A stretch of DNA of 64,000 bases, from the IMG/VR virus record IMGVR_UViG_3300021197_000882; one strand, written 5' to 3'. Position 1 is the first letter of the stretch. Each line of letters begins with the position of its first letter. This document shows positions 28,839 to 60,179 of this stretch, piece after piece. The stretch comes from an uncultured virus (IMG/VR IMGVR_UViG_3300021197_000882). Its lineage: Duplodnaviria; Heunggongvirae; Uroviricota; Caudoviricetes. The notes under the pieces were generated by a model. It was not told the DNA's origin, searched no databases, and was given only the letters and a program-made list of their open reading frames with translations. The position numbers and the translations under genes were made by a program.

Positions 28839-29728
28839 CTCTCTAAGTTACCGTCACAAATAGCAAAATAACTACAGTGAGCGCAAGTTTTGTAAAAGTA
28901 TTTAGTACCAAAATGGTCTTGTTCATAAGCATGAAGAAGTTTAGCAAGATTGTTCTTAACAGAGGTCATAGTTCTTGTCTTAACTGGCTCTACTTGGACA
29001 TGGTTAGATACAGGATAGTACCAACCCCAATGGGTTATAGGCATATCTTTACTTAAGCCGAAGTTTTCTAAAACTGTGTCAGTCGCACTCTCTAGTAGTA
29101 GTTGATAGAAAGCCATTTCTTTACGCATACTTGTTGCCTTGTAGTCTTTCCATCCACCAGTCTTGTATTCAAAGAGAATAATTTTTCCGTCTTCTACGAA
29201 GATTCTATCTATTATCCCCTGTATATGTATTACATAATCTCTAGTTAAGGGAAACTTTTCATTAGTATCTGCCGCTATTGTTATCTCTGCATCAAACATT
29301 CCTTCATTTACAGCAGGTAAAAATTCATGAACTTTATTTTCTTTCTGTGCATCAATAAACCTCTGTGCTTCAAAGGCCGCAACTGTTAAAGAAATATCAT
29401 AATAGTCATCTATTGGCATTAGTCCAGTACAGTATTCTAAAACTTCTTGCTCATCCATAGGGGCTGCTTTCTTGATGTCGAATATATTAAAGAAATCTTC
29501 TCTATGGTTGTGTAAAACAGTTCCCTTTAACATGGCTTCAGTAGTGTCTTGAGGCAGTCTTTCTATGTAGTTAAACTCGTACTTCTTTGGACACCAATCG
29601 AAAGAACCTAGTGAAGATTTACTTACCTTCAATATGGGTTCTTCCGGCTTATTGTAATTCTCAGGTTTCCATTTGTATGTGTATTTTTTCATATTCTTTA
29701 TTTCATTTTCATAATTCATTAAAACCAC
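28826..29728 (-). CDS. Cas4-like PD-(D/E)XK exonuclease
   Basis: WCP, GTVLH, GIIDRI, EYKTG, YQL and C-terminal CxxCxxxxxC Fe-S staple. Confidence 0.88.
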   Translation of the reverse strand: MVLMNYENEIKNMKKYTYKWKPENYNKPEEPILKVSKSSLGSFDWCPKKYEFNYIERLPQDTTEAMLKGTVLHNHREDFFNIFDIKKAAPMDEQEVLEYCTGLMPIDDYYDISLTVAAFEAQRFIDAQKENKVHEFLPAVNEGMFDAEITIAADTNEKFPLTRDYVIHIQGIIDRIFVEDGKIILFEYKTGGWKDYKATSMRKEMAFYQLLLESATDTVLENFGLSKDMPITHWGWYYPVSNHVQVEPVKTRTMTSVKNNLAKLLHAYEQDHFGTKYFYKTCAHCSYFAICDGNLESWIS

Positions 29729-30612
29729 TCTCCTAGTGTTTTTTGTATTGTTCCTGTTCTTATGTTAGATATATCCCAATTCATAGCCCTGTATATGGGT
29801 TCTGCTTTTTTTACCACTTGTTCCGAATAGTGTTTCCAATCGGGAGAACAGTTTTCAAAGTCCTTATAGTTAGACCCCGACATATACTGTACTTGTTTTA
29901 CAGCCTTAGTCAAAGGATGTATAAAGGTATCTTTGCTTACTACCTTTAGATATAGATAAGAATCATCGAAGTTGTTCAAGTTATTTTGGCAAGCATAGAT
30001 TACTCCTGCTATTCCTGAACCTATACTGGGATTTCTATCCTCTAAGGTCTTAAAGGAAGAGGGACTTGCACTACATTTCTTACAATAATTTACCTCTTCC
30101 ATTTCTCTTAAATCATACTTAGTACGACAGTTCGGGCATTTCACTGTGAATCTGTCTTCTCTAAGCCTACTTCTTTTGATAACATTCTCTATAGGATAAT
30201 TTCCTTCAACAACATTTCTAAAGGTATTACTTAGTCTAGAGTTTATTTCTTCTAGAGAGTCTTGAGATACCCACCACTTCAAAACATTAGTTTGAACTTC
30301 TTTGGATAATTTAGTTTCACTTACTCTCTTAGCAGTAAATCCAGTCATGGTAAACTTAGGCTCATCAAGCCATTTACCGTCCTCCCAAGTAATCATCCCT
30401 GCATTTCTATTCTTAGTTGTTCCAACACCCAATGCTGAGTAATATTTTTCAAACTCCAACACTACTGGGTGTTCTTCTAGGTTCATGATATTGGGGAAGT
30501 GTTCTCTTACACTAGACTCAATCTCTTTAATTGCTTCTTCTGCTTTCTCAACAGAATCTATTTGCACATATATTGAATCTGTGTGTCCATAAACTACCTT
30601 CATGTTAATCAC
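29719..30612 (-). CDS. polB: family B DNA polymerase, C-terminal subunit
   Basis: YGHTDS motif C, LEFEK, KNRNAG; CPNC...CKKC zinc-finger insertion. Confidence 0.9.
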   Translation of the reverse strand: MINMKVVYGHTDSIYVQIDSVEKAEEAIKEIESSVREHFPNIMNLEEHPVVLEFEKYYSALGVGTTKNRNAGMITWEDGKWLDEPKFTMTGFTAKRVSETKLSKEVQTNVLKWWVSQDSLEEINSRLSNTFRNVVEGNYPIENVIKRSRLREDRFTVKCPNCRTKYDLREMEEVNYCKKCSASPSSFKTLEDRNPSIGSGIAGVIYACQNNLNNFDDSYLYLKVVSKDTFIHPLTKAVKQVQYMSGSNYKDFENCSPDWKHYSEQVVKKAEPIYRAMNWDISNIRTGTIQKTLGEWF

Positions 30613-31362: not shown

Positions 31363-31833
31363 CTACATCTCAACGGGGTTTTGCACTTCATTATCTAGCC
31401 TCTCCTCAAACTTCTTTATTTGATTTTTCATTCTTGTGTTAGAACTCTTGTAGCCCTTTACTAATTTAGTTAGTTCCTTGACTTCTTCCTGTGCTTTCTT
31501 TGATTTGCTCATAGAAGATACAACTATGTCTTTTAATTGACTAATCTTTTCATCAAGGATTTTTTCAATAATAGGGTCAAGCCCTTTGGTTATTTGATGC
31601 TGAACTTCTACTGCGATAGTGCTATGTAATACATCAACAGAAGTTGAAAGCCCTTCGACTTTTTTATCTAATCTATCTATGTTTTTAATAACATTCTTAG
31701 CAGTATTAGTCATAACCTTATATCTATTTCTCCCCCCACTACCTCTACAGTCGGGGCATATTGTTTCTCTTGATTTCATAGAAAACTTTCTAAAAGTCTC
31801 TCCACAATCTCTACATACTCTGGTCATACTCAT
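31363..31833 (-). CDS. zinc-ribbon plus coiled-coil protein
   Basis: CRDCGETF...CPDC followed by long heptad helix. Confidence 0.7.
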   Translation of the reverse strand: MSMTRVCRDCGETFRKFSMKSRETICPDCRGSGGRNRYKVMTNTAKNVIKNIDRLDKKVEGLSTSVDVLHSTIAVEVQHQITKGLDPIIEKILDEKISQLKDIVVSSMSKSKKAQEEVKELTKLVKGYKSSNTRMKNQIKKFEERLDNEVQNPVEM

Positions 31834-33515
31834 ATTTTCAACTCCTTTGCTTTGAATGCCGCTAATCTAATTGCTTCTCTAGCACTAGCAGTAATGCTAG
31901 CGGCTAGGTCTACATCAGCCCATCCAAATCCTTGAAATGCTAATACACCATAGAAAGAGGCCATTAGTCTTTTAATTGCCATTTGGTTGTTGTGCCATTT
32001 TTGATAGTCTTCTTTATTATCTGCACTTCTCATAAACTGTTTGTATTTGTTTCTCATTTCCTTTAGTTCTAAAAGTGCTTTAGGTAATAGGCCTAGTTCA
32101 TCTGTTTTATAGTAAAGCATATTTGTTTTAGTAACAGGAGTAAAATCTCTAGGTACTGCTATGTTTACTGCAAACTCAGTAGGTTCATTAGACTTAGTTT
32201 CCCAAGAAATGTTCCTAGCAATCATCATTGAAGGATATAGTCCAGCAAAGTCGAAAGCCGCCACATTTAGATGTAGTCCTTGGGTTTGTTCACTTAGTGG
32301 GTCGTAAATCATAGCACCATCGTATTCTCTTCTCTCTACATTTCTATCGCCAGTAGGTGCTTTCCACCATGCATTTCTCATAAAGTAGATAGAACCCATA
32401 TGGCTAGCATAAAAGCAAGCATCGAAGGGAGCCTTTAGAAGTCTCTGTAAAGCAATAATAGCCTCACTACAAAAATTAGTTTCGTCTATTCTTACTAGAA
32501 GTTCTACATCAACTAATGCATAATTTAAGTATGCTTCCGTATCTTCTAGCCATCCTCTACGATAGAATTCATTAGGGTCTTCGAACTTAGTATTCATCTG
32601 TTTACCTTCATCAAACAATAGTTTGGAAACATAATCTAAACTTAGTGATGGTAGTGTTCCTCTTTGAGAATCATTCCATTGCCTCTCAAATGCCAAGTCT
32701 AGGTTGAGAGTTATTCTTCCTGCTATTGGTTGTTCAATAGAAGAAAAACCATTCTTCTTAGTATATTCAAGTTTGTCATTCTTTCCTAATTTTATTCCTT
32801 TAACATAATTAATAGGAGACATAATCAAAGGATTAATGTCTAATGCACAACACCGTTCTAATAATTTAGGAATATCTGCAAAGTTACCAAACCAAGCAAT
32901 AAGCATATCGGGGTCTTTGTCTACCATTGTATAGAGGAAATCCTCAATCATATCCTTTTCATTATTATAAGCCATCATATGTGCAACTTTATCTGTAGAC
33001 ATTTTAAATCCGTCATATGGTTCTTTATTAGGAAACCAAGCCCACTGATAGTATTCTTTATCATAATTATCATACATTACAATAGTAGTAATACAACTAT
33101 CATGTTGTCCACCCTGTTGCCATTCCATATCCCAGTACCACTTACGCATATCGTATTCAGGCATTTCTTCTATTTCATCGACTGCGTATCTAAAGGTGTA
33201 AGGGACATCTGCCTCATAAGTTTCTCTAAACCTATCCTTAGCCTTTCTATCTGCTCCACTTTCATAGTACACCTTTACTAGTTTATTTCTTTGTAGATTG
33301 TAGAATTCTCCTTCTTCATACTCAAATTCTCCTTGAATATATTTAGAGACTTGATAGTGAGGAGGTCTGCTTTCTGTATCTTTGACAAAGAAGTAAGGCC
33401 TAAATCTAAGTTTCTCTTCTTTTTTAACGCCGTTTTCTCTCCATGATTTATATATTAGTTTGTTATTTTTATTGGCATTAATTATCATTTTAATCTCCTC
33501 TAACTCTCGGCGCAC
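31830..33515 (-). CDS. polB: family B DNA polymerase, N-terminal subunit (exonuclease plus motifs A and B)
   Basis: WDMEW ExoI, YALVDV ExoIII, FDFAGLYPS motif A, QMAIKRLMASFYG motif B; ends before motif C; start probably ATG 33488. Confidence 0.92.
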   Translation of the reverse strand: MRRELEEIKMIINANKNNKLIYKSWRENGVKKEEKLRFRPYFFVKDTESRPPHYQVSKYIQGEFEYEEGEFYNLQRNKLVKVYYESGADRKAKDRFRETYEADVPYTFRYAVDEIEEMPEYDMRKWYWDMEWQQGGQHDSCITTIVMYDNYDKEYYQWAWFPNKEPYDGFKMSTDKVAHMMAYNNEKDMIEDFLYTMVDKDPDMLIAWFGNFADIPKLLERCCALDINPLIMSPINYVKGIKLGKNDKLEYTKKNGFSSIEQPIAGRITLNLDLAFERQWNDSQRGTLPSLSLDYVSKLLFDEGKQMNTKFEDPNEFYRRGWLEDTEAYLNYALVDVELLVRIDETNFCSEAIIALQRLLKAPFDACFYASHMGSIYFMRNAWWKAPTGDRNVERREYDGAMIYDPLSEQTQGLHLNVAAFDFAGLYPSMMIARNISWETKSNEPTEFAVNIAVPRDFTPVTKTNMLYYKTDELGLLPKALLELKEMRNKYKQFMRSADNKEDYQKWHNNQMAIKRLMASFYGVLAFQGFGWADVDLAASITASAREAIRLAAFKAKELKI

Positions 33516-51319: not shown

Positions 51320-52564
51320 TCAGTCCTTTTGCTCCGCTAATAGCCGACTAATCAACTTAGAAGCGGCGTGTTTGGACTTAACAGAATCAGTGTTCTCATA
51401 TCCTAAGTTTATTAGGAATTTAATTTGTTTTGGCGTAGCGGGAGAAACAAGAACTCTTCGTAGAGTTTGTATCTGTCTGTCGGATAGTTCTTTTTTTCTC
51501 GACATTTGAGTTTTAATACTACTCAAGAACTTCCTTTCCCACTCATTAGTTGCTGTATCTAAATTAAATGCCTCTATACCGTAGTATTGACACATTTCAT
51601 CAAATGCGGCATCATTAGATTGAAGATTGGCTTCTTCTCTAGCCTTTTGTACTAACGCTTCTTTCTTTTCTGCTAGTCGTCTTTCTTCTCTTCTAATTCT
51701 CCTTTCTTCTTCTCTAGCGGCTTCTGCGGCTTCTCTAGCAGGTCTTTCTTCTTCCCACTTTCTATTTCGTTCTACCTCTTCTGCCTTTCTTTTTTCAGCA
51801 ATCATTCTTCTACGATTAGCAATTTCAAGTTTCTTCTCCTCAAGTTTTAATTGGGACTCATGAAACTTAGCAATACCGTCTTTGTGTCTTAGGAATAAGA
51901 GATTAATATCGTCCATAAGTTTTTTGTTAGGATAGCCGTGAACTCTTTGTTGGTTCTTTGGGTTATCCGGATGGTTCCATCTCCAAACAATAGAAGCCAT
52001 TTGGTAGTTAGGGTCTCCAAAGATTCCTTTGCCCTTCTTTCTTAGAATAAGTTTTCGTCTGCTCATTTCTAGTGAACTGTCCCAATACCAATCTGCTGTT
52101 CTAGTGTTAGTCCATAAATCATATTCTTTTACAAAGTCAAATCTTTCTTCAAATTTCTCTCCGTTTTCAGCCCACCATGCTTCTGCTTTCATTGAACCTA
52201 CTCTAACTTTAATCCATTCTGCGACCTGTTCATCAGTCACTAAACCTACATCTATCTTTAGTTCTTCAGCAATTTGCCTCATAATTAGATAAGAATTAAT
52301 ATGGTCACTACCTACAACTTCTTCATTACCATTCTCGGTGTTTCTAATATGAAAGTGATATACAATACCATGACCACATAAACAGTGATTTTGGTGTTCT
52401 GTATTACTAACCCATTCGGGTGTTTGACCATTACCACTCCACCAAACATTACCAGTTGCTATCCATTCGTGTTTAGCCTCATCGTAATTATCTGATACTG
52501 ATAATTCTAGCATTCTTCTCTTTAGGATTCTATCCCATCTTCCTTCTCCTAGTTCTCTTTTCAT
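51320..52564 (-). CDS. hypothetical protein with N-terminal Zn motif and charged helix
   Basis: CLCGHGI...VGSDH; E/R/K-rich helix; C-terminal ATPKQIKFL. Confidence 0.75.
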   Translation of the reverse strand: MKRELGEGRWDRILKRRMLELSVSDNYDEAKHEWIATGNVWWSGNGQTPEWVSNTEHQNHCLCGHGIVYHFHIRNTENGNEEVVGSDHINSYLIMRQIAEELKIDVGLVTDEQVAEWIKVRVGSMKAEAWWAENGEKFEERFDFVKEYDLWTNTRTADWYWDSSLEMSRRKLILRKKGKGIFGDPNYQMASIVWRWNHPDNPKNQQRVHGYPNKKLMDDINLLFLRHKDGIAKFHESQLKLEEKKLEIANRRRMIAEKRKAEEVERNRKWEEERPAREAAEAAREEERRIRREERRLAEKKEALVQKAREEANLQSNDAAFDEMCQYYGIEAFNLDTATNEWERKFLSSIKTQMSRKKELSDRQIQTLRRVLVSPATPKQIKFLINLGYENTDSVKSKHAASKLISRLLAEQKD

Positions 52565-52728
52565 TTTCTTCCCTCCTTAATATCTTGATACAGGTCTTTT
52601 ATTATTCCATCTACTAAACCTGTCAAGTCCATTTGTATTAGTTCTGCTAATAGTTCTTTTAATTCTTTTTCTTCTAGCAAGTCAATTATCATTTGACTTT
52701 TGCTATCATATCCAAGTTTCTCATACAT
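52561..52728 (-). CDS. 55 aa acidic protein (not in ORF track)
   Basis: MYEKLGYDSKSQMIIDLL...; GAGGG RBS and ATGA overlap. Confidence 0.55.
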   Translation of the reverse strand: MYEKLGYDSKSQMIIDLLEEKELKELLAELIQMDLTGLVDGIIKDLYQDIKEGRK

Positions 52729-52737
52729 ATTTTTCCC

Positions 52738-54180
52738 TCATACTTTCTTTGGTCTTTCACCAACATAGAATAGATTCTTCTTTGCTCTTGTTATGGCCAC
52801 ATAACATATATTATTTTCTTCTTGTCCACCTAAAGGATGTGGCATTCTTTCTGTTGCTAGAAGATAAACATTGTCGGCTTCTAGTCCTTTGGCTTTGTGA
52901 ACTGTTGAGAGCATAATCTCTCCTTCATCATTACCATCAAATACTCTTTTAATTTCTTCAATGATTCCACCAACGGTTGTTGTTTTGTGAGCGAAGATAC
53001 TTATACAATCTTTCCTGTCTTCTAAAGCAAGAGCCTTTGACTTCTTTTCTTGTTGAATAAATCGGTTGTAATTATACTTGAAATCCGATAAATACAGACT
53101 CCAAAATTCATCACTACCCATTTGGTGATTCTTGGTTACTTTCTCTACAGAATTGATAAGTCCCTTAGTCATATCTCGACCTAGAATATAGGCTGATTTA
53201 CCTTGACTAATCAAATCATAGAATGCGCTAACCAATGGTGCATTGTATCTACAAAGAACCATATCGTTTCTTTGAGGAGTAAATGGCGCAAATTCATTTA
53301 CGCTACCGTCTTCTGCATCATCATGAGCATAGAATTCTTTTACATATCTGTTTGCTTCTGCAACTACTGATGTAGGGCATCTCCATGTAATACTTAGTGA
53401 AAAGTCATTTACTTCTCTTTCTCCTTTCTTAACTAGTCTGTCTCTAAACATAGACATTGAATTAGAATCTGCTCCTCTAAAGCCATAGATTGCTTGGTTT
53501 CTATCACCAACAATAATGCATCGACCACCATTAACACAGCGAGAAATAAGTTCTCTTTGTGCTTCATTGAAGTCCTGTGCTTCATCTACAAACATTACAT
53601 CATAATGAGGTAGTGGGTATTCGTTTACCAATGGTAGCCAAATCATATCATCAAAATCAATTATCCCTGTCTGTGTCCTACACATATTTAGGATGGCAGG
53701 GATAGATTGTATTGAAAGAGTTTCTTCTCTGTCCGAATTGAAATTGATATTGTACTCATCAATCAAACTTAGAATTGATTTGACATCTTTACCTTCAATC
53801 ATAGAACCCTTGACTAGAGATACTAGTTTCTTCAAAGGTACCACATTGAAATCTTTACCTAGCAACTCACGAATGATGTTTGTTAGTTTGTAGTTGTTTA
53901 CTTTAGTTTTGATACCTGCTTTTCTTATTGCTGCAAAACCAAATGCATGAAATGTTTTTGCTTCAACATCTTCCGGCAGTCTCTTTTGTAGTTCGTTTGC
54001 GATAGATTTGTTGAATGCTAAGAAAGCGGATTTTTTACCGTCTATTCTTTTTGCTCCTTCAACTATAGTGAATGTCTTTCCTGTTCCTGCACCGGCATTT
54101 ACCATTACATGACCTTCACCATTTTCTATTTCATTCCATATTGCTTCCTGTTCTTGTGTTCCTGTTATCATATTTTTCAC
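52738..54180 (-). CDS. UvrD/Rep-family SF1 helicase
   Basis: AGAGTGKT, VDEAQD, VGDRNQAIYGFRGA, STVHKAKGLE, YVAITRAK. Confidence 0.95.
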   Translation of the reverse strand: MKNMITGTQEQEAIWNEIENGEGHVMVNAGAGTGKTFTIVEGAKRIDGKKSAFLAFNKSIANELQKRLPEDVEAKTFHAFGFAAIRKAGIKTKVNNYKLTNIIRELLGKDFNVVPLKKLVSLVKGSMIEGKDVKSILSLIDEYNINFNSDREETLSIQSIPAILNMCRTQTGIIDFDDMIWLPLVNEYPLPHYDVMFVDEAQDFNEAQRELISRCVNGGRCIIVGDRNQAIYGFRGADSNSMSMFRDRLVKKGEREVNDFSLSITWRCPTSVVAEANRYVKEFYAHDDAEDGSVNEFAPFTPQRNDMVLCRYNAPLVSAFYDLISQGKSAYILGRDMTKGLINSVEKVTKNHQMGSDEFWSLYLSDFKYNYNRFIQQEKKSKALALEDRKDCISIFAHKTTTVGGIIEEIKRVFDGNDEGEIMLSTVHKAKGLEADNVYLLATERMPHPLGGQEENNICYVAITRAKKNLFYVGERPKKV

Positions 54181-54195
54181 TTTCCTTTCTGTGGT

Positions 54196-54415
54196 GAAAC
54201 CTTAGTGGCAACTGCCGCATTTGGAATTAACCAAACCGCATTACTTCTTTGTCGCCCATGTTGCCACTAAAGTTTCTGTGACTAGTGTATTGATTAAACT
54301 CATCAATGCTGATGGTTGGCACAATCCCGTTCTAGTCACCCTTGGATGGGGGGGTTGCATTATACCCCCACCCCATGAGGGTCGAACCTTGTTTGAAACA
54401 ATGAAAAAGGTTTCA
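54196..54415. ncRNA. candidate structured RNA or leader upstream of helicase
   Basis: four consecutive stem-loops, including an 11-bp and an 8-bp perfect stem. Confidence 0.5.
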
Positions 54416-54437
54416 CTAAATCTATAAGTCTAATGAA

Positions 54438-54938
54438 TCAATACAGTGAGGGAATTCTGCCATCCCACTCACCACTTTCTACCATAGAGTTGAGCGTGTC
54501 TCTTAGTCGTTTTACCATAACTCTAGAATAGTCCTCTACTCCGTCATAGTTTCCACCGCCACTCTTTTGATGTTTCTTTAGAATCTTTTCGTAATATGGC
54601 CTACTTTCGAAAAAGGTTGCATAGTCATCATGAGCATCTATACAAATAGAGTCTATTGATATTCTAGCATGGGCTGGGTGCTTTGATTTAAGCCCTCTTC
54701 GGAAAGGTGTCCCATTTCTATTCTTTAGCATGTCCTTGATGCTTTTCTCAACCCTTCCTCTTTCTTCTACCATTGACTTACCCAACTCGATATTCATATT
54801 CACAATATCAACAATTGATTTAGGTAATTCAGCCTCTTTCATGAATTCTGTAGCATCGTAAACTAATGCTTCCCATGCGTTATTTTCTGCCTGTTGTTGG
54901 CTATTTGTCTCTGCTATTTCTTCATCCTCTTTGCGCAT
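54438..54938 (-). CDS. GGNY-family paralogue 1, probably leaderless
   Basis: shares NIELG, GGNY with ORFs 55746 and 56556; TTTAAATA about 25-30 nt upstream of ATG. Confidence 0.75.
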   Translation of the reverse strand: MRKEDEEIAETNSQQQAENNAWEALVYDATEFMKEAELPKSIVDIVNMNIELGKSMVEERGRVEKSIKDMLKNRNGTPFRRGLKSKHPAHARISIDSICIDAHDDYATFFESRPYYEKILKKHQKSGGGNYDGVEDYSRVMVKRLRDTLNSMVESGEWDGRIPSLY

Positions 54939-55099
54939 AACACAAAATAAAGGCTTCCCATATTTAAACTACCCTATTGTTTATTATATTCTCTGTTTCG
55001 CCAATTAATGCAATTAGTGTAAAAAACCCATACGGTTAAAATATATTTCGTTAAGCAAACTAAGAATAAAGACAAAACTAAGAATTTATCTTATTTGGC

Positions 55100-55400
55100 T
55101 ATGTGTCCGGAAAATACATCCTGTCACCGGATATTGGGTTATGCAACATAACTGGTTCATAATGAGGTCAAACCTGCATATTTATTCGTCCTGTCCTGTC
55201 CGGACTTACCCCCCTCTCTCTCTCTCTCTACTACTCTCTACCTCTCTAGGGGATAATAACAATAGAATGCTATATACCCTACCGGATATATAGGATATAG
55301 GATATATTAATATTATATATTAATAATGTTACATAACTACTACACTATGCCTTTCTTATGTCCTATCCGGCCTTTTTTTCACCACCGGACGCATCCACCA
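55100..55400. repeat. cluster of CCGG(A)/TCCTGTC/TAGGATA short repeats and a (CT)n tract
   Basis: CCGG at 55107, 55127, 55200, 55282, 55367, 55385; TCCTGTC three times; CT microsatellite about 55214-55229. Confidence 0.7.
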
Positions 55401-55632
55401 ACTTTGAAAGATTGAGTCTCAGGGCATTCTGACGATTTTGCACCCTTCGATATCTATCCTATATAGTATAGTAATATAGTATATAATAATAACATATTTA
55501 TTCACATAAGTTCAATTGAAAAGGGCTATGAGTTTAATGGCCTTATTTAGAGAATATATTTCTATACTAATTAGTGTAGATAAGGTGGTTAGTTTTAGGA
55601 GTCGCCTATGTTTAACGACTACTCTTCCCACA

Positions 55633-55642
55633 ACCATATGGT
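55633..55642. promoter_or_regulatory. palindromic box ACCATATGGT, copy 1
   Basis: core CCATATGG recurs four times in 3 kb, always just upstream of a transcription unit. Confidence 0.65.
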
Positions 55643-55745
55643 ACTAAGTGACACTTTGTAGAACGGCATACCTTAAATCAACCACCCATATAGTTAGTGC
55701 TTCGAAGGGAATAAGAGGCACCACCACTAGAAAGGAAGTGAAAAA

Positions 55746-56342
55746 ATGCAAGAAACAAGATTTATAGAAAACGCTGCGAAGGTAGAAGCATGGATTAATG
55801 CTCTACCGGAAGAAGTCACTACGGTTCGTAAGAATCAAATGAGGCTCAACCAAATAACCGATAACATTGAACTGGGTCTAGATGATTCAGCAGATGATGA
55901 GGAAAGAACACTTTGTTGGACTACTATGTCCAAGAATGGTGCATACTTTGCTAAAAACTACTCTACGCTTGAGGCATTCCCAAAAGCGAGAATGGGACGA
56001 GCAGACAGGTACCCAACCGAACTCCGAATTATAATGACTACTTCTTCCCAAGAATACAAGAGTGCTTTACTGGCTCTCCCTACTGAAGTCCAACAGATGC
56101 TAATTAACTACAACCTCCCACATGGCAGAACTGGCGGAAATTATTCAACATATGAGAATTATGTTGACCATTTGGTCAGTGTTTCAGTTAGAAACATGGA
56201 AGCCTCCATTGATGAAGGTCGAAACATAGTCGATAAAAAGGGTGTTTGGGTCGTTAAAGAGGGACTACCTCAAATGACTCCACCACCAACAAAAGAAGAG
56301 AAAGAAGCCGCTATTGCTAAAATAGAGGAGTCTAATGAGTGA
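55746..56342 (+). CDS. GGNY-family paralogue 2
   Basis: NIELG, LCW, FPKARMGR, GGNY, RNM...EGR. Confidence 0.8.
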   Translation: MQETRFIENAAKVEAWINALPEEVTTVRKNQMRLNQITDNIELGLDDSADDEERTLCWTTMSKNGAYFAKNYSTLEAFPKARMGRADRYPTELRIIMTTSSQEYKSALLALPTEVQQMLINYNLPHGRTGGNYSTYENYVDHLVSVSVRNMEASIDEGRNIVDKKGVWVVKEGLPQMTPPPTKEEKEAAIAKIEESNE

Positions 56343-56368
56343 TTCTCACTTATTCCCTTCGTCGCCCA

Positions 56369-56420
56369 AACGGGAGAACTGATTAATTTCGGTTCTCCCG
56401 TTCCTTTTTTTTATTTTTTT
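56369..56420 (+). terminator. hairpin plus T-tract terminator
   Basis: AACGGGAGAACTGA / TCGGTTCTCCCGTT then long T-run. Confidence 0.85.
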
Positions 56421-56463
56421 AACTTTTTAGCCCCTCACCACCCAGCAAATAACAAAGTAAGCA

Positions 56464-56477
56464 CAACCATATGGTTG
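56464..56477. promoter_or_regulatory. palindromic box CAACCATATGGTTG, copy 2
   Basis: 14-bp perfect palindrome upstream of ORF 56556. Confidence 0.65.
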
Positions 56478-56555
56478 CTTTGCATACCTTAGAACCTATA
56501 ATATACCCACCTGTACTATTAGTGCTTCGAGTGGTAGTAGACTCAAAACAAGGAG

Positions 56556-57101
56556 ATGAAAAATATGAAAGTAGAAAATTGGATGAAGATGTCAACTCAA
56601 GTACATGCTTGGTTGGCTAAAGAGAAAAGAGGCGCAAGGGGTAAAATTATTGGTCTACAACTGGAACTAGGTGATGATGTTGTAAACGATGTTGATTTTA
56701 CCACTGAAGAAAAAGAAGAAGAGTTAGGCCTATGTTGGTCTGTTTGTCGAGATAACGGTAAGAGATGGGATGATTTCCCAAAAGCGAGAATTGGTCGAGA
56801 ATCAATTTTACCTGTCGAATTGTCGGGTATTGCCGAGACTGCAATGACTCAACTTCAAGATGCATTTGCCAACTTGCCTACTAATGTAATTACTATTCTA
56901 TTGAATACATTTTACATGGGATTAGGTAGAAGAGGCGGTAACTATGAAACCATTGATGATTTAACAGGATATGTTCAAAATCATTGTATGCGTAATATGG
57001 TTACAGCATTTAAGGAAGGAAGATTTGTCGAAGGAGACGAAAACGGACTACCAAAGGTAGAAGCACCACCTTTGAAGAATAACTCGGAGGAAGCCGAGTA
57101 A
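56556..57101 (+). CDS. GGNY-family paralogue 3
   Basis: QLELG, LCW, FPKARIGR, GGNY, RNM...EGR; AAGGAG RBS. Confidence 0.8.
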   Translation: MKNMKVENWMKMSTQVHAWLAKEKRGARGKIIGLQLELGDDVVNDVDFTTEEKEEELGLCWSVCRDNGKRWDDFPKARIGRESILPVELSGIAETAMTQLQDAFANLPTNVITILLNTFYMGLGRRGGNYETIDDLTGYVQNHCMRNMVTAFKEGRFVEGDENGLPKVEAPPLKNNSEEAE

Positions 57102-57135
57102 GCGTGAGTGAGTTTACTACCACTCGTCGCCCATA

Positions 57136-57184
57136 GCGGGAGATTAGATGAAATACTCTAGTCTCCCGCCATTTTTTTTATTTT
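57136..57184 (+). terminator. hairpin plus T-tract terminator
   Basis: GCGGGAGATTAGA / TCTAGTCTCCCGC then T-run. Confidence 0.85.
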
Positions 57185-57211
57185 CATCACGATTTAAGTA
57201 ATGCAAAGCAT

Positions 57212-57223
57212 TACCATATGGTA
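57212..57223. promoter_or_regulatory. palindromic box TACCATATGGTA, copy 3
   Basis: 12-bp perfect palindrome preceded by GCAAAGCA. Confidence 0.65.
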
Positions 57224-57277
57224 CTAGGATTCCTTTGGAAGCCGACATACCCTAAGAAAACCGTGATTAATATTAAC

Positions 57278-58045
57278 ATGTCAGTAATATACAGAAGAAC
57301 ATTTAACCTAACCTATAGTAATGGAGAAACCATTACAGATAGTGAAAAAGCACTATTTTGGAACTACCTAAAAGACCATCAAGTATTTACTACTTGTAAT
57401 CCAACAGGCGAAAACCATTTTGGTGCAGAAGTAATACAAGATAACAAAGTGGAATATCAACTATGGCTAGATGACGAAACACCAGTAGGTGAACCATTAG
57501 ACTATCTTATGTATGTTCATTCGACTATGGCTACCTTTAAGGAAGTCTACCCTAATATAAAATACACCCATAAAGAAGTTGTTGGGGATGTAGAAGTAAT
57601 GATTCTACCGGAAAACAGGACTCTTATTCTTAGCAATAAGGCACTTGCTTCTTTAAGTCACACTAGGGCATCTACGGATAATATTGTTCTTGCCTACCAT
57701 GACGAAGAAATAGTAGTTAGAGTATCAGTTTGGTTTCATTCTTGGGGTGGCGGTATTGATTTAGATTTTAATATAGAATACCGTACTGATAGACCGGCGA
57801 TTAAACTTATGGTTGAGAAAACTATGACTGATGTACCTAATTCAGTCATGGGTTTTATCCAAGCAAGAGTAGAAGAGGCAATATCATTTTCCTGTAATAA
57901 TCAATCTATTGTAGATAATCCCACAATAGACTGTAACTTTGAATGCGTTAATAGTTCAAAGAGTGAATGTGATATTAGCGTTGTTAATAAAACAAGAGAT
58001 GCAATAAAGATATACCGAAAGAGATACGGGAGTGAAGAAGAATGA
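57278..58045 (+). CDS. hypothetical protein
   Basis: long ORF; the track start at 57218 is the ATG inside the palindrome, so ATG 57278 is more plausible. Confidence 0.7.
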   Translation: MSVIYRRTFNLTYSNGETITDSEKALFWNYLKDHQVFTTCNPTGENHFGAEVIQDNKVEYQLWLDDETPVGEPLDYLMYVHSTMATFKEVYPNIKYTHKEVVGDVEVMILPENRTLILSNKALASLSHTRASTDNIVLAYHDEEIVVRVSVWFHSWGGGIDLDFNIEYRTDRPAIKLMVEKTMTDVPNSVMGFIQARVEEAISFSCNNQSIVDNPTIDCNFECVNSSKSECDISVVNKTRDAIKIYRKRYGSEEE

Positions 58046-58188
58046 CAACATATAAAATAATAAGATTTAGAGAAGGAAGAGGAAAAATGACAATAAAAAC
58101 GGGTTTAACTTTAGAAGAAGCACAAGCCCATTGTCAAGATGATGAAACACATGGAGATGGTTGGTTTGACGGTTACACTGAAGAATAA
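58042..58188 (+). CDS. 48 aa hypothetical protein (not in ORF track)
   Basis: MTTYKIIRF...TGLTLEEAQAHCQDDETHGDGWFDGYTEE; ATGA overlap. Confidence 0.65.
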   Translation: MTTYKIIRFREGRGKMTIKTGLTLEEAQAHCQDDETHGDGWFDGYTEE

Positions 58189-58304
58189 ACTCATTAACAT
58201 TGTATCACTTGAATGTGCTAGAACAGACCATAGTTTTGACTTAGCACATTGTAAGATTTGCATGAAGAGAAGAAATTCCTAACTGACAAAAAGAACAGTC
58301 TTTG

Positions 58305-58540
58305 GCGGTTTACCTGTTTATTAAATTAAACCGTCGCCCATTCCAATAACCCGTAAGGTGGCCACTTAAGTTATAGTGAAACAAAGGCGAACATCTTAGA
58401 TGAACTCTACTAAGAGTCGAACGAATAGATTAATTATGCTAGAGTTACAATACTAGTTATGTAACTACAATAGCATCCCTTATTCAGAATCAACGCATAG
58501 ATAGTCTAAGATTAGTAGCCGGAGTTTCATTTTGTTTTTT
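58305..58540 (+). ncRNA. candidate multi-stem non-coding RNA
   Basis: several nested stems in an ORF-free stretch ending in a T-tract. Confidence 0.45.
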
Positions 58541-58571
58541 TACTAATCGGTATGGGGTGTGCAAAGCACAA

Positions 58572-58579
58572 CCATATGG
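58572..58579. promoter_or_regulatory. palindromic box CCATATGG, copy 4
   Basis: preceded by GCAAAGCACAA as in copies 2 and 3. Confidence 0.6.
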
Positions 58580-58807
58580 CTTTGTTTTCCAAATTTTTTA
58601 ATTTAAACTTTAAAGATTAGACTAAAAAGTCTATTATTTAGCCATTAAATTACCCTATTATAGAGACAATTACTATAAATGATGGCTAACTAGCCTCACA
58701 TTAGATGACACCCAGTATGGCTTTATCTAAAACGGACAATACTATTACTGGAAGTTACTAAAAGGTTAAGCATTATACTAAAAAGGCTGATTACAGAGGA
58801 ATAAGTT

Positions 58808-58957
58808 ATGAGTTGGAAGGATATAATTAAAACTAAAGAGCAGGAAGAAGAACTACCTGAAGATGTAAAAAGGGCTAGAGAGAGGATTAAACAAGGATTA
58901 CCTTCAAAAGAACAACCTCTTATTCCTCAATTTGAAGAACAAAGAACTACTGCTTAG
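58808..58957 (+). CDS. tagged array member 1 (MSWKDIIK), 49 aa (not in ORF track)
   Basis: ATG AGT TGG AAG GAT ATA ATT AAA ... TAG. Confidence 0.65.
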   Translation: MSWKDIIKTKEQEEELPEDVKRARERIKQGLPSKEQPLIPQFEEQRTTA

Positions 58958-59122
58958 AAATACTTAACTTTAATTTAGAACATAAACATTAAACAACAAA
59001 CAAATAAAGGATTTGATTTAAATGATATACTTTTATTCTGTAAATACAAAGTTTAAACTAAAAAATTTCTCGCTAGTGACAAACAAATTCCGCCACATTT
59101 TTCGAGAAAAAAGGTGATTGAC

Positions 59123-59359
59123 ATGACATGGAAAGATATACTAAAGTTTAATAAAAAATCCCTTGCGGATATAGCAGAAGAAATGGATAATATGATGGGT
59201 GGAAGAACTAAATTCCGTGAAGCCTATGAAGGCGGAAGATACGGTAATGATGAACAAGCCAAAACAAAAATGCTTATGCTATTAGATGAATTAAAAGATA
59301 CCGATAATTCAAAGGCAGGGCAACTAATTAATCACATTAAGGCTATGCCTTCCTTTTAG
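59123..59359 (+). CDS. tagged array member 2 (MTWKDILK)
   Basis: AGGTGA RBS, shared N-terminal tag. Confidence 0.8.
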   Translation: MTWKDILKFNKKSLADIAEEMDNMMGGRTKFREAYEGGRYGNDEQAKTKMLMLLDELKDTDNSKAGQLINHIKAMPSF

Positions 59360-59394
59360 AAAAAAATCCGCCACAAATTTTTGGAGAAATTAAT

Positions 59395-59766
59395 ATGACA
59401 TGGGAAGACATATTGAAAAGGATAATTAAAACCCACGAAGACTACAAAATGTATTTTAGTTTCTTTGATGGTGAGGCTTTACCATTTGGTTCAGTTGTTG
59501 AATATACAGGTTCAAGGAAAATACCCTTACCTACAGGTGTCATGAGGAATGAGGGCTACCCAGAAATAGTAAAAGGAAATCGGTATAAAATCGGTGGAGC
59601 AGATTATAGCACACTTATTGGGGATTATGTTTTAATTGCCGAAAATGATAGTGGCTTTGTATCTCTACCAAGAAAAATGATGGTGAGAGAAGGGCGAAAC
59701 TTTAAAGTAATATCTAGGGGTTCAGAAGAACAGCGCAATAATTCAGTTCCTCCGAAAAGTAGGTGA
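59395..59766 (+). CDS. tagged array member 3 (MTWEDILK)
   Basis: GGAG RBS, TAATATGACATGG junction. Confidence 0.8.
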   Translation: MTWEDILKRIIKTHEDYKMYFSFFDGEALPFGSVVEYTGSRKIPLPTGVMRNEGYPEIVKGNRYKIGGADYSTLIGDYVLIAENDSGFVSLPRKMMVREGRNFKVISRGSEEQRNNSVPPKSR

Positions 59767-59771
59767 ATAAT

Positions 59772-60179
59772 ATGACATGGAAAGATATACTAAAAGCACC
59801 GTTTGATGCTAAGAGAAGAAATAGGGCTTTGGATGAAAGAGATAAGGCCGAAAGAGAAGTTGAAGCAACTAGACCTAAAGAGGATTTATCTACCGATATT
59901 TCCACCTTTGCCTCTAAGTATATTGACCCGCAAACTAATGAATTTGGGGCAGATGATAGGGCTTTTGCCACTAGCGGTTTTTCTAGAGGGGTAAGTGAGG
60001 ATGCTTGGAAGCCATTTACTGAACTGGTAAAAAAACATGGTATAGATAAACTAGAAGAAGAATTGGGTAAGTTATACAATACTAAGGTGTTTATTTCACA
60101 TAGAGATGTAGGCACAGACCTTGAGGATTATGTTATTGATATAGGACATGATTATGAAGGGAAATATAAAGGTGAATAA
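59772..60179 (+). CDS. tagged array member 4 (MTWKDILK)
   Basis: AGGTGAATAATATGACATGG junction. Confidence 0.8.
   Translation: MTWKDILKAPFDAKRRNRALDERDKAEREVEATRPKEDLSTDISTFASKYIDPQTNEFGADDRAFATSGFSRGVSEDAWKPFTELVKKHGIDKLEEELGKLYNTKVFISHRDVGTDLEDYVIDIGHDYEGKYKGE

Follow-up and report, generated by a model that had tools for sequence, protein, structure and literature searches.

Covarying 5′ and 3′ untranslated regions point to an RNA clamp at the mRNA ends of a gene family in a magrovirus-like virus

Introduction

The closest known cases to the structure reported here are the helix joining the 5′ untranslated region (UTR) to the 3′ UTR in the hbs mRNA of Bacillus subtilis and hok tac/fbi. 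In the hbs mRNA, the 14-bp helix is described as modulating cleavage by RNase Y (PMC5737220). For hok, the account describes a 5′ element which in the nascent RNA pairs with the region immediately downstream, while in the full-length RNA it pairs with the 3′ end (PMC9841398). The stabilisation of archaeal mRNAs and the protection of their ends are little understood. One relevant enzyme, the 5′-3′ exonuclease aRNase J, is described as conserved in Euryarchaeota (PMC7144898).

We have analysed a window of 64,000 nucleotides from an uncultured virus (IMG/VR record IMGVR_UViG_3300021197_000882), in which two adjacent genes carry complementary UTRs. The virus resembles magroviruses, which are tailed viruses of Poseidoniales. 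These hosts, the marine group II archaea, are uncultured and abundant in the ocean. Literature searches gave no publication on the structure and none linking magroviruses with UTRs.

Results

The virus and its gene content

Among the 58 ORFs scanned in the window we recognised PolB, a clamp loader, an ATP-dependent ligase, XPF, a thermosome-type chaperonin (Cpn60/TCP1) and a TFIIB zinc ribbon. The nearest relatives of the PolB are found in haloarchaeal tailed viruses, with about 25% identity. Relatives of the two units described below occur on contigs of 91.7-96.9 kb. Magroviruses are described as being of marine origin and as having genomes of about 90-100 kb, which code for a chaperonin and for replication proteins of archaeal type (PolB, RFC, ATP ligase) (PMC5434244). 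The window is from a magrovirus-like tailed virus of marine archaea, the likeness being to this published description. Deposited phage genomes gave no match, neither in a nucleotide search with region 52001-60000 nor in a protein search with the unit 2 protein.

Two paralogous genes with complementary flanks

The first-pass annotation had described two ORFs, each bracketed by complementary UTRs. Both brackets exist (all coordinates refer to the + strand), but the second ORF had been started at 56556 while its homologues begin at ATG 56565 (MKVENW...), which is probably the true start. Unit 1 consists of ORF 55746-56342 (198 aa) with its flanks, and unit 2 of ORF 56565-57101 with its flanks; the latter ORF has 178 aa if read from the conserved start, while its longest frame begins at 56556. 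The genes are paralogous and each is probably a transcription unit of its own.

Upstream of unit 1, the palindrome core ACCATATGGT (55633-55642), embedded in CAAAG..ACCATATGGT..CTTTG, is a candidate regulator site, and the same palindrome precedes unit 2 (56466-56475). Exact copies of ACCATATGGT are restricted to 55633, 56466 and 57213, a copy with one mismatch occurs at 58571, and the motif is kept upstream of the units in relatives. A TATA-like promoter box, CCTTAAAT in unit 1 (55671-55678) and CTATAATA in unit 2 (56496-56503), occupies positions -28 to -21 relative to G55699 and G56524, respectively. The outer flanks had been claimed to be identical, and indeed TTAGTGCTTCGA on the 5′ side (55694 and 56519) and TCGTCGCCCA on the 3′ side (56359 and 57124) are exact at both units, with exactly two copies each in the window.

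The predicted 5′ ends of the mRNAs read GCUU (55699-55702 for mRNA 1, 56524-56527 for mRNA 2). The 5′ arms follow, with 13 nt in unit 1 (CGAAGGGAATAAG, 55703-55715) and 18 nt in unit 2 (CGAGTGGTAGTAGACTCA, 56528-56545). In unit 1, the Shine-Dalgarno-like sequence AGGAAGUGA (55733-55741) is outside the clamp; in unit 2, the 5′ arm stops 4 nt short of the Shine-Dalgarno sequence AAGGAGAUGA (56550-56559). The 3′ arms begin 7 nt past the stop codon in unit 1 (CTTATTCCCTTCG, 56349-56361) and 8 nt past it in unit 2 (TGAGTTTACTACCACTCG, 57109-57126). The sequence confirms that the arms of unit 1 are exact reverse complements and that those of unit 2 form 17 Watson-Crick pairs and one G-U pair on the + strand, both as originally noted.

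Beyond the 3′ arms lies the conserved 3′ flank UCGCCCA (56362-56368 and 57127-57133), part of which closes the helix. In unit 1, G55699 and C55700 pair with C56365 and G56364, and the next two bases, U55701 and U55702, form a 2x2 internal loop with C56363 and U56362; in unit 2, G56524 and C56525 pair with C57130 and G57129. The outer helix in the window thus has 2 bp beyond a 2x2 loop. The terminator that had been noted behind the 3′ flank corresponds to a strong hairpin followed by T8 at both units, which may act as terminator and 3′-end cap: hairpin 56369-56402 with T8 at 56405-56412 in unit 1 (feature 56369-56412, -24 kcal/mol, z -5.7), and hairpin 57136-57169 with T8 at 57172-57179 in unit 2 (feature 57136-57179). 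In unit 1 the hairpin begins 3 nt past the helix and in unit 2 it begins 5 nt past it, so that neither is flush. For the 84-nt 3′ region of unit 2 (57099-57182), the fold has -35.5 kcal/mol (z -7.7), with a short local stem also formed across the 3′ arm.

Taken within the window, the repeats are only modestly above chance. Inverted repeats of such size are common there (112 pairs); the unit 2 arms rank 15th and the unit 1 arms are absent from the 25 longest pairs. Compared with mononucleotide shuffles, the UTR duplex of unit 1 has -27.7 kcal/mol versus -19.0 +/- 3.5 (best shuffle -30.9), and that of unit 2 has -40.3 versus -20.3 +/- 3.9 (best shuffle -31.6), so that unit 2 is significant alone and unit 1 weakly. 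The case for pairing is therefore based on placement, on the shared flanks and on conservation in relatives. For both window RNAs at full length, the minimum free energy fold as well as the centroid fold contains the clamp. Flanking-region pairs of other window genes, namely the distant paralogue 54438-54938 on the - strand, the neighbouring operon 57280-58188 and the small ORF 58808-58957, score like shuffles in all three cases.

Conservation and covariation of the helix in relatives

A helix between the 5′ and 3′ flanks is present in 103 of 105 distinct homologous units, with 58 distinct arm pairs and helix models of 14-28 bp (median 20). The first-pass annotation had described covarying stems and had asked for a covariation test. 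Covariation was tested on an alignment of 66 distinct units, with 500 shuffles and with slid partners as controls. In this alignment 85.8% of the cells are paired compared with 68.8% after shuffling, a level that is reached by none of the 500 shuffles. The covariation score is 0.499, with 0.186 for shuffles (0 of 500 reaching the observed value) and 0.09-0.19 for slid partners, but shuffle controls overstate significance since the sequences are related. Covariation thus exceeds both types of control, and 13 of the 14 pairs of the main helix vary on both sides. Cognate duplexes have a mean of -30.1 kcal/mol, compared with -16.4 for 956 cross-unit pairings.

RNA from the + strand is favoured by the excess of G-U over A-C: there are 92 G-U pairs versus 10 A-C 1x1 mismatches, and within the aligned main helix the numbers are 22 and 9. 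The opposite strand folds only a little less well (-29.2 against -30.1 kcal/mol), with the + strand ahead in 63 of 103 units. Together with covariation and the folds of the window RNAs, this excess supports the panhandle looping out the whole ORF that had been proposed.

The helix has a common architecture. The main stem of 9-18 bp differs in sequence between paralogues and viruses while complementarity is kept. The outer helix is GCU/AGC in most relatives and GC/GC in the window, and many relatives have an inner helix of 3-5 bp, which sets in immediately past the stop codon. The outer pairs show conservation of sequence and not covariation: G-C is found in 56 of 66 units without any change, and C-G in 52 of 66 with a single change. 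At nucleotide 4 a mismatch is kept, 57 of 65 cells being unpaired as U-U, U-C, A-A, C-C or A-G. The reading of the inner loop as a K-turn with tandem G-A was dropped, the loop sequences being variable by eye (GA/AA, CGG/GGC and others).

The clamp uses the whole 3′ UTR. In 58 of 103 units, pairing of this UTR sets in with the base directly behind the stop codon, and in 95 of 103 it does so within 3 nt. Helix and hairpin adjoin without a gap in 56 of 103 units, and another 15 have 1 nt between them. The partner of the 3′ arm is the 5′-terminal arm, 19-44 nt upstream of the ATG. Two units deviate. In relative L008 (gene 416-1024), 5′ arm and promoter have been lost to upstream ORFs while the 3′ arm is kept; therefore, either the clamp is dispensable there or the contig is chimeric. 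Unit L097 (4132-4696) has no convincing helix.

Promoter and predicted transcript ends

When 66 units are stacked without gaps on an invariant G, which has a pyrimidine before it in 65 of them, all 66 show the conserved block AACCTTAT at positions -30 to -23. From archaeal promoter architecture we infer that this block is the promoter. As the box is in fixed register, the G is likely the first transcribed base, and the promoter spacing places the start of the window mRNAs near G55699 and G56524, i.e. at the first base of the helix. This fits the previously proposed start near GTGC, with the G of GC at 55699 and 56524 as the probable +1. In the neighbouring gene, the same box is found 21 nt before ATG 57280, as expected for a leaderless mRNA.

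Contigs from RNA libraries (4 runs from 4 studies) cover only 55979-56204 and 56541-57127, at a depth of 2-5. One contig reaches 57127; neither this edge nor the uncovered stretches are evidence on transcript ends. Back-spliced joints, which had been suggested as a sign of circularisation, were not seen in the four contig sets, where coverage is very thin.

Alternative local pairing of the 5′ end

The 5′ end can also pair locally. In 57 of 66 units a local hairpin starts at nucleotide 1, with 72.2% paired positions compared with 67.5% for shuffles (0 of 500 reaching the observed value) and 21-34% for slid partners, so that the support for this alternative is modest. Compensated variants occur (GCAUCG/UGAUGC, GCUAUG/UGUAGC), and nucleotide 4 has a partner within the local hairpin in each of 57 cases out of 57. 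The 5′-terminal 5 nt are predicted to be mostly paired in either state, the unpaired probability being 0.35 with and 0.20 without the 3′ UTR (22 of 66 units sampled). A local hairpin at the 3′ side mirroring that at the 5′ end was considered but is weak, with 3-4 bp, and not general.

The encoded proteins

The proteins of units 1 and 2 share 30% identity (E 5e-24), and the ORFs of the family code for soluble-looking helical proteins of 168-202 aa. Pfam and PHROGs assigned no family to the two proteins or to the distant paralogue, and Pfam gave nothing above threshold for 39 distant family members. A PDB profile search had 0 matches. An AlphaFold model is helical (pLDDT 83); Foldseek found no match to it at E <= 0.001. 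The ESM Atlas gave no usable match. The best VIA-align result (Z 9.3) is uninformative, as it consists of generic three-helix bundles covering only residues 2-75. The family is conserved in magroviruses and probably highly expressed.

Discussion

A clamp that may seal both mRNA ends

We consider it rather probable that the helix is an RNA clamp which seals both ends of the mRNA, with each paralogue being its own unit, and that it serves message stability and perhaps ribosome reuse. The mRNA would begin at the invariant G of GCUU, with its first bases paired to the 3′ UTR. Going inward, a short outer helix would be followed by the mismatch at nucleotide 4, by the main stem of 9-18 bp and often by the inner helix of 3-5 bp. 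The 3′ strand would end beside a G+C-rich hairpin, which is followed by a U-run. As the 3′ strand adjoins the hairpin, the whole 3′ UTR together with the 5′ terminus could form a single stacked, closed structure from which the ribosome-binding site and the ORF are looped out. The clamp would seal the 5′ end, and clamp and hairpin together the 3′ end, against RNases that attack from the ends, such as aRNase J and the exosome, and a message with sealed ends may be long-lived. In nascent RNA, or when a terminating ribosome has melted the 3′ strand, the 5′ end could refold into the local hairpin GCUUC...GAAGC, with the arm in its loop. Since the stop codon is located beside the 5′ UTR, ribosomes might be reused on the same message, a second benefit that is speculative. 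Several observations count against this reading, namely the short outer helix of the window and its hairpins that are set off from the helix, the two deviating units, and the small difference between the strands on folding. Simple end protection gives no explanation for the retention of the nucleotide 4 mismatch.

That mismatch is one reason to ask whether a protein binds there. The terminal helix (GCU-U-C / G-U-AGC with its kept mismatch) would then be a candidate site for the arginine-rich product of the gene itself, in an autoregulation, or for another viral or host factor, and the variable stem would present it. The outer pairs are conserved in sequence, the mismatch persists even though the same base pairs in the local hairpin, and in the window the clamp was found on this gene family, while three other flanking-region pairs score like shuffles. 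However, the 5′ side may be kept as promoter initiator and the 3′ side through its pairing to it, and the gene product has no recognisable RNA-binding fold or family; we regard such a site as unlikely. A processing or ligation site is improbable. The 5′ end lies against the base of the 3′ hairpin, as at a nick in an otherwise unbroken helix; after trimming of the U-tail and the 5′ triphosphate an RNA ligase might circularise the mRNA, or an endonuclease might cut the helix. The frequent flush junction and the predicted pairing of the first transcribed base fit this idea, as does the known occurrence of circular RNAs and of RNA ligases among archaea. On the other hand, the junction is not flush in the window, no joint was seen in the thinly covered contigs of the four RNA libraries, and no RNA ligase or RNase was recognised in the 58 scanned ORFs. 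RNase III is not known from most archaea, which also counts against this reading. The bulge-helix-bulge of archaea consists of two 3-nt bulges on opposite strands with 4 bp between them; such a motif, which would be a site for circularisation by EndA and RtcB, is not visible by eye in the helices, which have only 1x1 or 2x2 mismatches and symmetric inner loops. The proposed likeness to an acceptor stem ending in CCA is not supported either: relatives do not keep the CCA but carry CCCC, and this C-run mostly makes up the 5′ strand of the hairpin that comes next. ARAGORN found 0 genes in the window. An Rfam search, which the first-pass annotation had proposed, gave no relevant match, applying the gathering threshold to the whole window and E <= 1 to 54100-59200, where only a gyrA RNA matched at chance level (E 0.42).

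The architecture parallels that of hok (PMC9841398), and in unit 2 the 5′ arm nearly reaches the Shine-Dalgarno sequence, as would suit a switch of the hok or icaR type in which the full-length mRNA, while closed, would be stable yet give little translation, and removal or opening of the 3′ arm would end this state. Yet the arms do not include the ribosome site, and in the folding models of 22 of 66 units the unpaired probability of the Shine-Dalgarno sequence is 0.47 at full length and 0.46 without the 3′ UTR (more open in 6 units, less open in 7), the start codon being open as well (0.70 versus 0.72). The predicted access is thus unchanged by the clamp, the ORFs encode helical proteins of 170-200 aa and not small toxins, and a switch of this type is very unlikely. 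Least of all do we expect the arms to act as DNA, be it as terminal inverted repeats of a mobile cassette, an alternative already raised in the first-pass annotation, or as recombination or cruciform sites. Inverted repeats do bracket a gene, the units are tandemly duplicated, and in one relative the 5′ side has been replaced exactly up to the ribosome site. But 160 of 160 copies are in one orientation, no empty site was encountered among the loci examined (viewed incidentally), and no transposase or integrase was recognised adjoining the units. The 5′ arm fits exactly between promoter box and ribosome site, as does the 3′ arm between stop codon and terminator. In addition, G-U exceeds A-C, and the 58 arm variants covary where recombinase sites would be expected to be conserved in sequence.

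The clamp as preferred here can also be read as a closed loop, with the first transcribed nucleotide stacked on the foot of the 3′ hairpin while the stop codon lies beside the 5′ UTR, which would allow handback of ribosomes or sealing of the nick to a circular mRNA. This we hold to be unlikely. If it were true, terminating ribosomes could return to the beginning of the message that they had just translated, or trimming of the ends and sealing could result in a circular, exonuclease-proof mRNA, and either would be a way of managing mRNA ends not described for archaea or archaeal viruses. Supported by covariation, the clamp itself begins with the predicted first nucleotide and takes up all of the 3′ UTR, and it is therefore a directly testable handle on 5′-end-dependent decay in Euryarchaeota, on the coupling of termination and initiation, and on co-transcriptional refolding, with the local hairpin forming first and the long-range clamp later. 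The clamp also marks a conserved and probably highly expressed magrovirus gene family, and its simple design could be transplanted to reporters.

Comparison with known systems

Conserved complementary termini that close a long RNA are also described for the panhandles and cyclisation sequences of RNA viruses such as orthoflaviviruses, where they serve the replication of an RNA genome (PMC12168079), whereas the clamp belongs to mRNAs of a dsDNA virus. The interplay of haloarchaeal 5′ and 3′ UTRs in translation (Brenneis and Soppa 2009, PMC2636863) is archaeal too and involves the joint action of both UTRs, but the part of that account considered here describes no conserved base-paired clamp of the kind found in the window units. 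In icaR of Staphylococcus aureus, the 3′ UTR likewise pairs intramolecularly with the 5′ UTR (PMC3868564, PMC7821165). There, a UCCCC anti-Shine-Dalgarno motif is reported to mask the ribosome site and to create an RNase III site (PMC7821165), while in the viral units the ribosome site is outside the helix and the 3′ arm pairs with the 5′-terminal arm instead of the Shine-Dalgarno sequence.

For hok of plasmid R1 and related type I toxin mRNAs, pairing of the 5′ end with the 3′ end of the full-length RNA is described as stabilising the message (PMC9841398, PMC6733600), as we propose for the clamp, and an alternative local partner of the 5′ element in nascent RNA is described for hok and predicted for the clamp. 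The closed form of hok is reported to hide the ribosome site, with 3′ trimming activating translation and antisense binding (PMC9841398). In the clamp, by contrast, predicted access to the ribosome site is unchanged, and products of the size found in this family are not small toxins.

Two features of the hbs type, namely complementary 5′- and 3′-UTR segments of the same gene and pairing that is maintained in relatives, are present in the viral family. As described, hbs has a long-range helix of about 14 bp between the UTRs of a monocistronic mRNA, just before the terminator, with a ribosome site that is left free and a link to protection from RNases (PMC5737220, PMC7821165). The clamp as predicted here has a like arrangement, and protection is its proposed function. 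The hbs helix is bacterial and belongs to one gene, and close relatives are reported not to conserve it (PMC7821165). The clamp differs in belonging to an archaeal virus, in starting at the predicted first nucleotide, in using the whole 3′ UTR, in its conserved mismatch and in being maintained with 58 arm sequences across a gene family.

Tandem units with complementary untranslated regions

The locus holds a tandem pair of units, both on the + strand. In unit 1, the flank word TTAGTGCTTCGA (55694-55705) leads into the 5' arm CGAAGGGAATAAG (55703-55715), and a Shine-Dalgarno-like AGGAAGTGA lies between this arm and the ORF (55746-56342), which is followed by the 3' arm CTTATTCCCTTCG (56349-56361), a second flank word TCGTCGCCCA (56359-56368) and a 14-bp hairpin (56369-56402) with T8 behind it. 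Unit 2 consists of TTAGTGCTTCGA (56519-56530), an 18-nt 5' arm (56528-56545), the Shine-Dalgarno sequence AAGGAGATGA, an ORF ending at 57101, the 3' arm (57109-57126), TCGTCGCCCA (57124-57133) and a 13-bp hairpin (57136-57169), again followed by T8. As the homologues begin at the second ATG of its longest frame, the ORF of unit 2 most likely starts at 56565.

Most of what the first-pass annotation had described in these units was borne out. The arms pair at 13 of 13 positions by Watson-Crick pairs in unit 1, and by 17 Watson-Crick pairs and one G-U in unit 2. The outer flanks are indeed identical, TTAGTGCTTCGA and TCGTCGCCCA each occurring exactly twice in 64 kb, and the hairpin after the 3' flank is present in both units. 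The proposed panhandle, which loops out the ORF, agrees with covariation in relatives and with prediction: in RNAfold models of the full predicted mRNAs (717 and 657 nt), the helix formed by the arms, here called the clamp, is part of the MFE and centroid structures of both units.

On the window alone, the arms are not shown to be above chance. Among 112 pairs of inverted repeats of at least 12 nt within 3 kb, the arms of unit 2 rank 15th and those of unit 1 are absent from the 25 longest. Of the two UTR-UTR duplexes, that of unit 2 is well separated from mononucleotide shuffles (-40.3 versus -20.3 +/- 3.9 kcal/mol), and that of unit 1 only weakly so (-27.7 versus -19.0 +/- 3.5 kcal/mol, best shuffle -30.9). 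What is unusual is the placement of the arms, the sharing of the flanks and their conservation: the two proteins are only 30% identical, yet 12 + 10 flanking bases are identical.

Conservation and covariation of the clamp

In metagenome contigs, a family profile search detected 224 relatives and 80 of them were retained; 21 viral-contig loci were added. From these, 175 gene copies were extracted; 158 have at least 100 nt on both sides, and 147 of the 158 reach at least 150 bits, corresponding to 105 distinct flank pairs. The helix has been upheld in evolution: it occurs in 103 of the 105, and its covariation exceeds that of shuffled and slid controls. One exception, contig locus L097 (4132-4696), has no convincing helix. 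In the other, L008 (416-1024), a unit 1 gene, two co-directional upstream ORFs replace the promoter and the 5' arm (region 1-450) while the 3' arm is kept; the break lies exactly at the ribosome site with the 3' flank retained, and the contig is either naturally rearranged here or assembled from two sources.

The arm pairs come in 58 distinct versions, with an ungapped core of 9-18 bp (median 14) and a full model of 14-28 bp (median 20). Covariation was scored on a 17-pair structure in an alignment of 66 distinct whole units. Paired cells amount to 85.8% versus 68.8% after shuffling, and the covariation score is 0.499 versus 0.186; neither value is reached in 500 shuffles, a control that overstates independence as the sequences are related. 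Sliding the partners by 1-3 columns reduces the score to 0.09-0.19. Cognate arms form duplexes of -30.1 kcal/mol, versus -16.4 kcal/mol for 956 random cross-unit pairs. Even allowing for kinship, the number of different compensated stems is large.

Counted from the 5' end, the outermost pairs are G-C, C-G and usually U-A, which are conserved in sequence and hardly covary. Nucleotide 4 is opposite a mismatch in 57 of 65 cells (U-U 46, U-C 5, A-A 3, C-C 2, A-G 1). Inward of it lies the covarying main stem, with two-sided changes at 13 of 14 pairs. Many units have an additional inner helix (e.g. AGCA/UGCU) whose 3' strand starts directly after the stop codon; of 103 units, 58 have their first paired 3'-UTR base at +1 and 95 have it within 3 nt. 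Downstream, a G+C hairpin follows the helix directly in 56 of the 103 and after 1 nt in 15, with U-rich sequence behind it. The window units are a variant: next to a 2x2 loop, their outer helix has just GC/GC, and their much longer hairpins start at a distance of 3 nt from the helix in unit 1 and 5 nt in unit 2.

Transcript start and neighbouring genes

The block ACAACCTTAT is conserved and ungapped at -32 to -23 from the invariant G of 'GC' in the 66 units, its A+T-rich part at -26 to -23, and a pyrimidine precedes this G in 65 of 66. Such spacing is that of an archaeal BRE/TATA promoter with a pyrimidine-purine initiator. The TATA-like boxes from which the transcript start had been placed, CCTTAAAT (55671-55678) in unit 1 and CTATAATA (56496-56503) in unit 2, thus lie at a fixed distance from the invariant G, and from this spacing and the initiator the +1 positions are most likely G55699 and G56524. 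The G at the predicted +1 is the first base of the helix.

The next gene serves as an internal check. It is listed as an ORF from 57218 (to 58045), but conservation with relatives begins at ATG 57280 (MSVIYRRTF...), probably its start; it has no 5'/3' clamp. The same box type ends 21 nt upstream of this conserved ATG, and its mRNA is therefore likely leaderless.

The palindrome ACCATATGGT (55633-55642, 56466-56475, 57213-57222, 58571-58580), part of the longer inverted repeat CAAAG(Y)A..ACCATATGGT..(T)GCTTTG, precedes four consecutive rightward units by 45-65 nt and is absent from the rest of the 64 kb. Matches with at most one mismatch number 7 versus 1.9 expected, and relatives keep the motif. 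It may serve a set of co-regulated, perhaps early, genes as an operator or activator site. Just 11 nt past its last copy begins one half (58591-58611) of a 21-nt, A+T-rich, 95% complementary inverted repeat that encloses the small ORF 58808-58957 (other half 59048-59068); given this proximity, the 5' repeat is probably upstream of the promoter, and the UTR duplex of this ORF is at chance level. Four successive small ORFs at 58808-60179 (+), with near-identical N-termini (MSWKDIIK, MTWKDILK, MTWEDILK, MTWKDILK), are by sequence a tandem protein family.

To the left, a third, very distant paralogue (54438-54938, - strand; HMM E 8.6e-6) has the GGGNY motif in common, lacks a clamp and has a different promoter region. 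The noncoding segment 3' of it (54200-54425, - strand) folds at -70.8 kcal/mol (z -3.1; one shuffle in 200 does as well) and gave no relevant Rfam match; one of its stems looks compensated by eye in two relatives, L002 and L003 (AACCUU/AAGGUU versus AACAUUG/CAAUGUU), and it is a possible small structured RNA. A nearly identical translation-initiation region, CACCAC(T)AGAAAGGAA(A)GTGAAAAA, belongs to unit 1 (55722-55745) and to the divergent helicase gene 52738-54180 (- strand; 54173-54196), and forms an inverted repeat in the window.

Protein family and virus

Of 1.84 billion representatives, 123 clusters belong to the protein family at E <= 0.001; it has no relative in Pfam, PHROG or PDB. Its conserved motifs are FPxAR(R/I/M)GR and GR(T/R)GG, and the AlphaFold model (pLDDT 83) is helical and matches only generic helical bundles.

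Besides tail genes, the window has a replication module of archaeal type, which comprises a family B polymerase encoded by two ORFs, a clamp loader, an ATP-dependent ligase, an XPF/ERCC4 nuclease, primase-like proteins, a thermosome-type chaperonin and a TFIIB zinc-ribbon protein. The polymerase is nearest to haloarchaeal tailed viruses (~25% identity); between its ORFs (29719-30612 and 31830-33515, - strand) lie a 156-aa ORF (31363-31833) and about 750 nt, an arrangement that might be due to an insertion or an intein-like segment, or might mean that the polymerase is genuinely split. Loci related to this one are carried by marine viral contigs of 91.7-96.9 kb, and searches of the deposited phage collection gave no nucleotide or protein match to the locus. 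Magroviruses of marine group II archaea are described as having a thermosome subunit in groups A and D (PMC5434244), and the window matches the published description as far as descriptions can be compared.

Possible function of the clamp

We read the element as acting as RNA. The alternative raised in the first-pass annotation, that the arms are DNA inverted repeats, is disfavoured: all 160 of 160 high-scoring copies have the same orientation (two in tandem at 54 loci, one at 52), no recombinase was found near the units, and the arms fit precisely into the interval from promoter to ribosome site and that from stop codon to terminator. Across the per-unit duplex models there are 92 G-U pairs and 10 A-C mismatches, and in the main helix of the alignment 22 and 9; the opposite strand is only slightly worse (-29.2 versus -30.1 kcal/mol), a strand test that is moderate and indecisive. 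The acceptor-stem-like end with CCA, also proposed there, did not hold up, as the CCA is not kept in relatives and neither ARAGORN nor Rfam gave a relevant hit.

Just past the 5' arm lies (U)GAAGC, which is able to pair with the 5'-terminal GCUUC(G); the 5' UTR alone can therefore fold as a hairpin with the arm in its loop. This hairpin, of at least 4 bp from nucleotide 1, occurs in 57 of 66 units, with compensated variants (GCAUCG/UGAUGC, GCUAUG/UGUAGC, GCUCC/GGAGU, GACUUC/GGAGUC), and is lacking in unit 2 of the window. Its columns are paired in 72.2% versus 67.5% when shuffled (0/500) and 21-34% when slid, which is modest support. All 57 local hairpins have nucleotide 4 paired, yet the long-range helix has it mismatched, so that the mismatch in the clamp looks to be under selection. 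In a rival reading, the conserved terminal helix would be a protein-binding site, which would account for the kept mismatch. The flush, nick-like geometry of helix and hairpin suggests a processing or ligation site, but no RNA ligase was recognised among 58 window ORFs, no bulge-helix-bulge was seen by eye, and no joints appeared in the thin coverage by contigs of four RNA-labelled marine libraries (four studies). These contigs cover parts of both ORFs at 90-99% identity, too sparsely to show transcript ends or joints, and indicate presence in RNA libraries only, with DNA carry-over possible.

Pairing probabilities, computed for a sample of 22 units out of 66, disfavour a translational switch. 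For the full-length RNA and for the RNA lacking its 3' UTR, the unpaired probability is 0.47 and 0.46 for the Shine-Dalgarno sequence (more open at full length in 6 units, less open in 7) and 0.70 and 0.72 for the start codon, which suggests that the clamp is not designed to mask the ribosome site. For the five 5'-terminal bases it is 0.35 and 0.20, and in these models the 5' end appears to be paired at all times. A terminating ribosome covers the first bases past the stop codon, so every round of termination would be expected to melt the clamp's inner portion, during which the local hairpin may take over the covering of the 5' end. With the stop codon brought near the 5' UTR, reinitiation might also be favoured. 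We consider protection of the mRNA ends the best-supported reading. The clamp would shield the message from RNases that attack its ends, for instance aRNase J, described as a 5'-3' exonuclease conserved in Euryarchaeota (PMC7144898).

Comparison with known long-range UTR helices

Long-range helices between 5' and 3' UTR occur in bacteria, in hbs, icaR and hok. In main texts, none was found described for archaea or archaeal viruses, no paper was found to connect magroviruses with UTRs, and the broader literature gave bacterial and haloarchaeal work only; the portion of the Philosof magrovirus paper covered here (PMC5434244) mentions no promoters, hairpins or inverted repeats. In hok mRNA, the 5' tac is reported to pair first with the sequence that directly follows it and, later on, with the 3' fbi (PMC9841398), a two-state design which resembles the local hairpin and long-range helix of the clamp family. 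The clamp differs from hok and icaR in that it does not seem to hide the ribosome site. Like the 14-bp helix described for B. subtilis hbs (PMC5737220), it joins 5' UTR and 3' UTR, and hbs would be its analogue in end protection.
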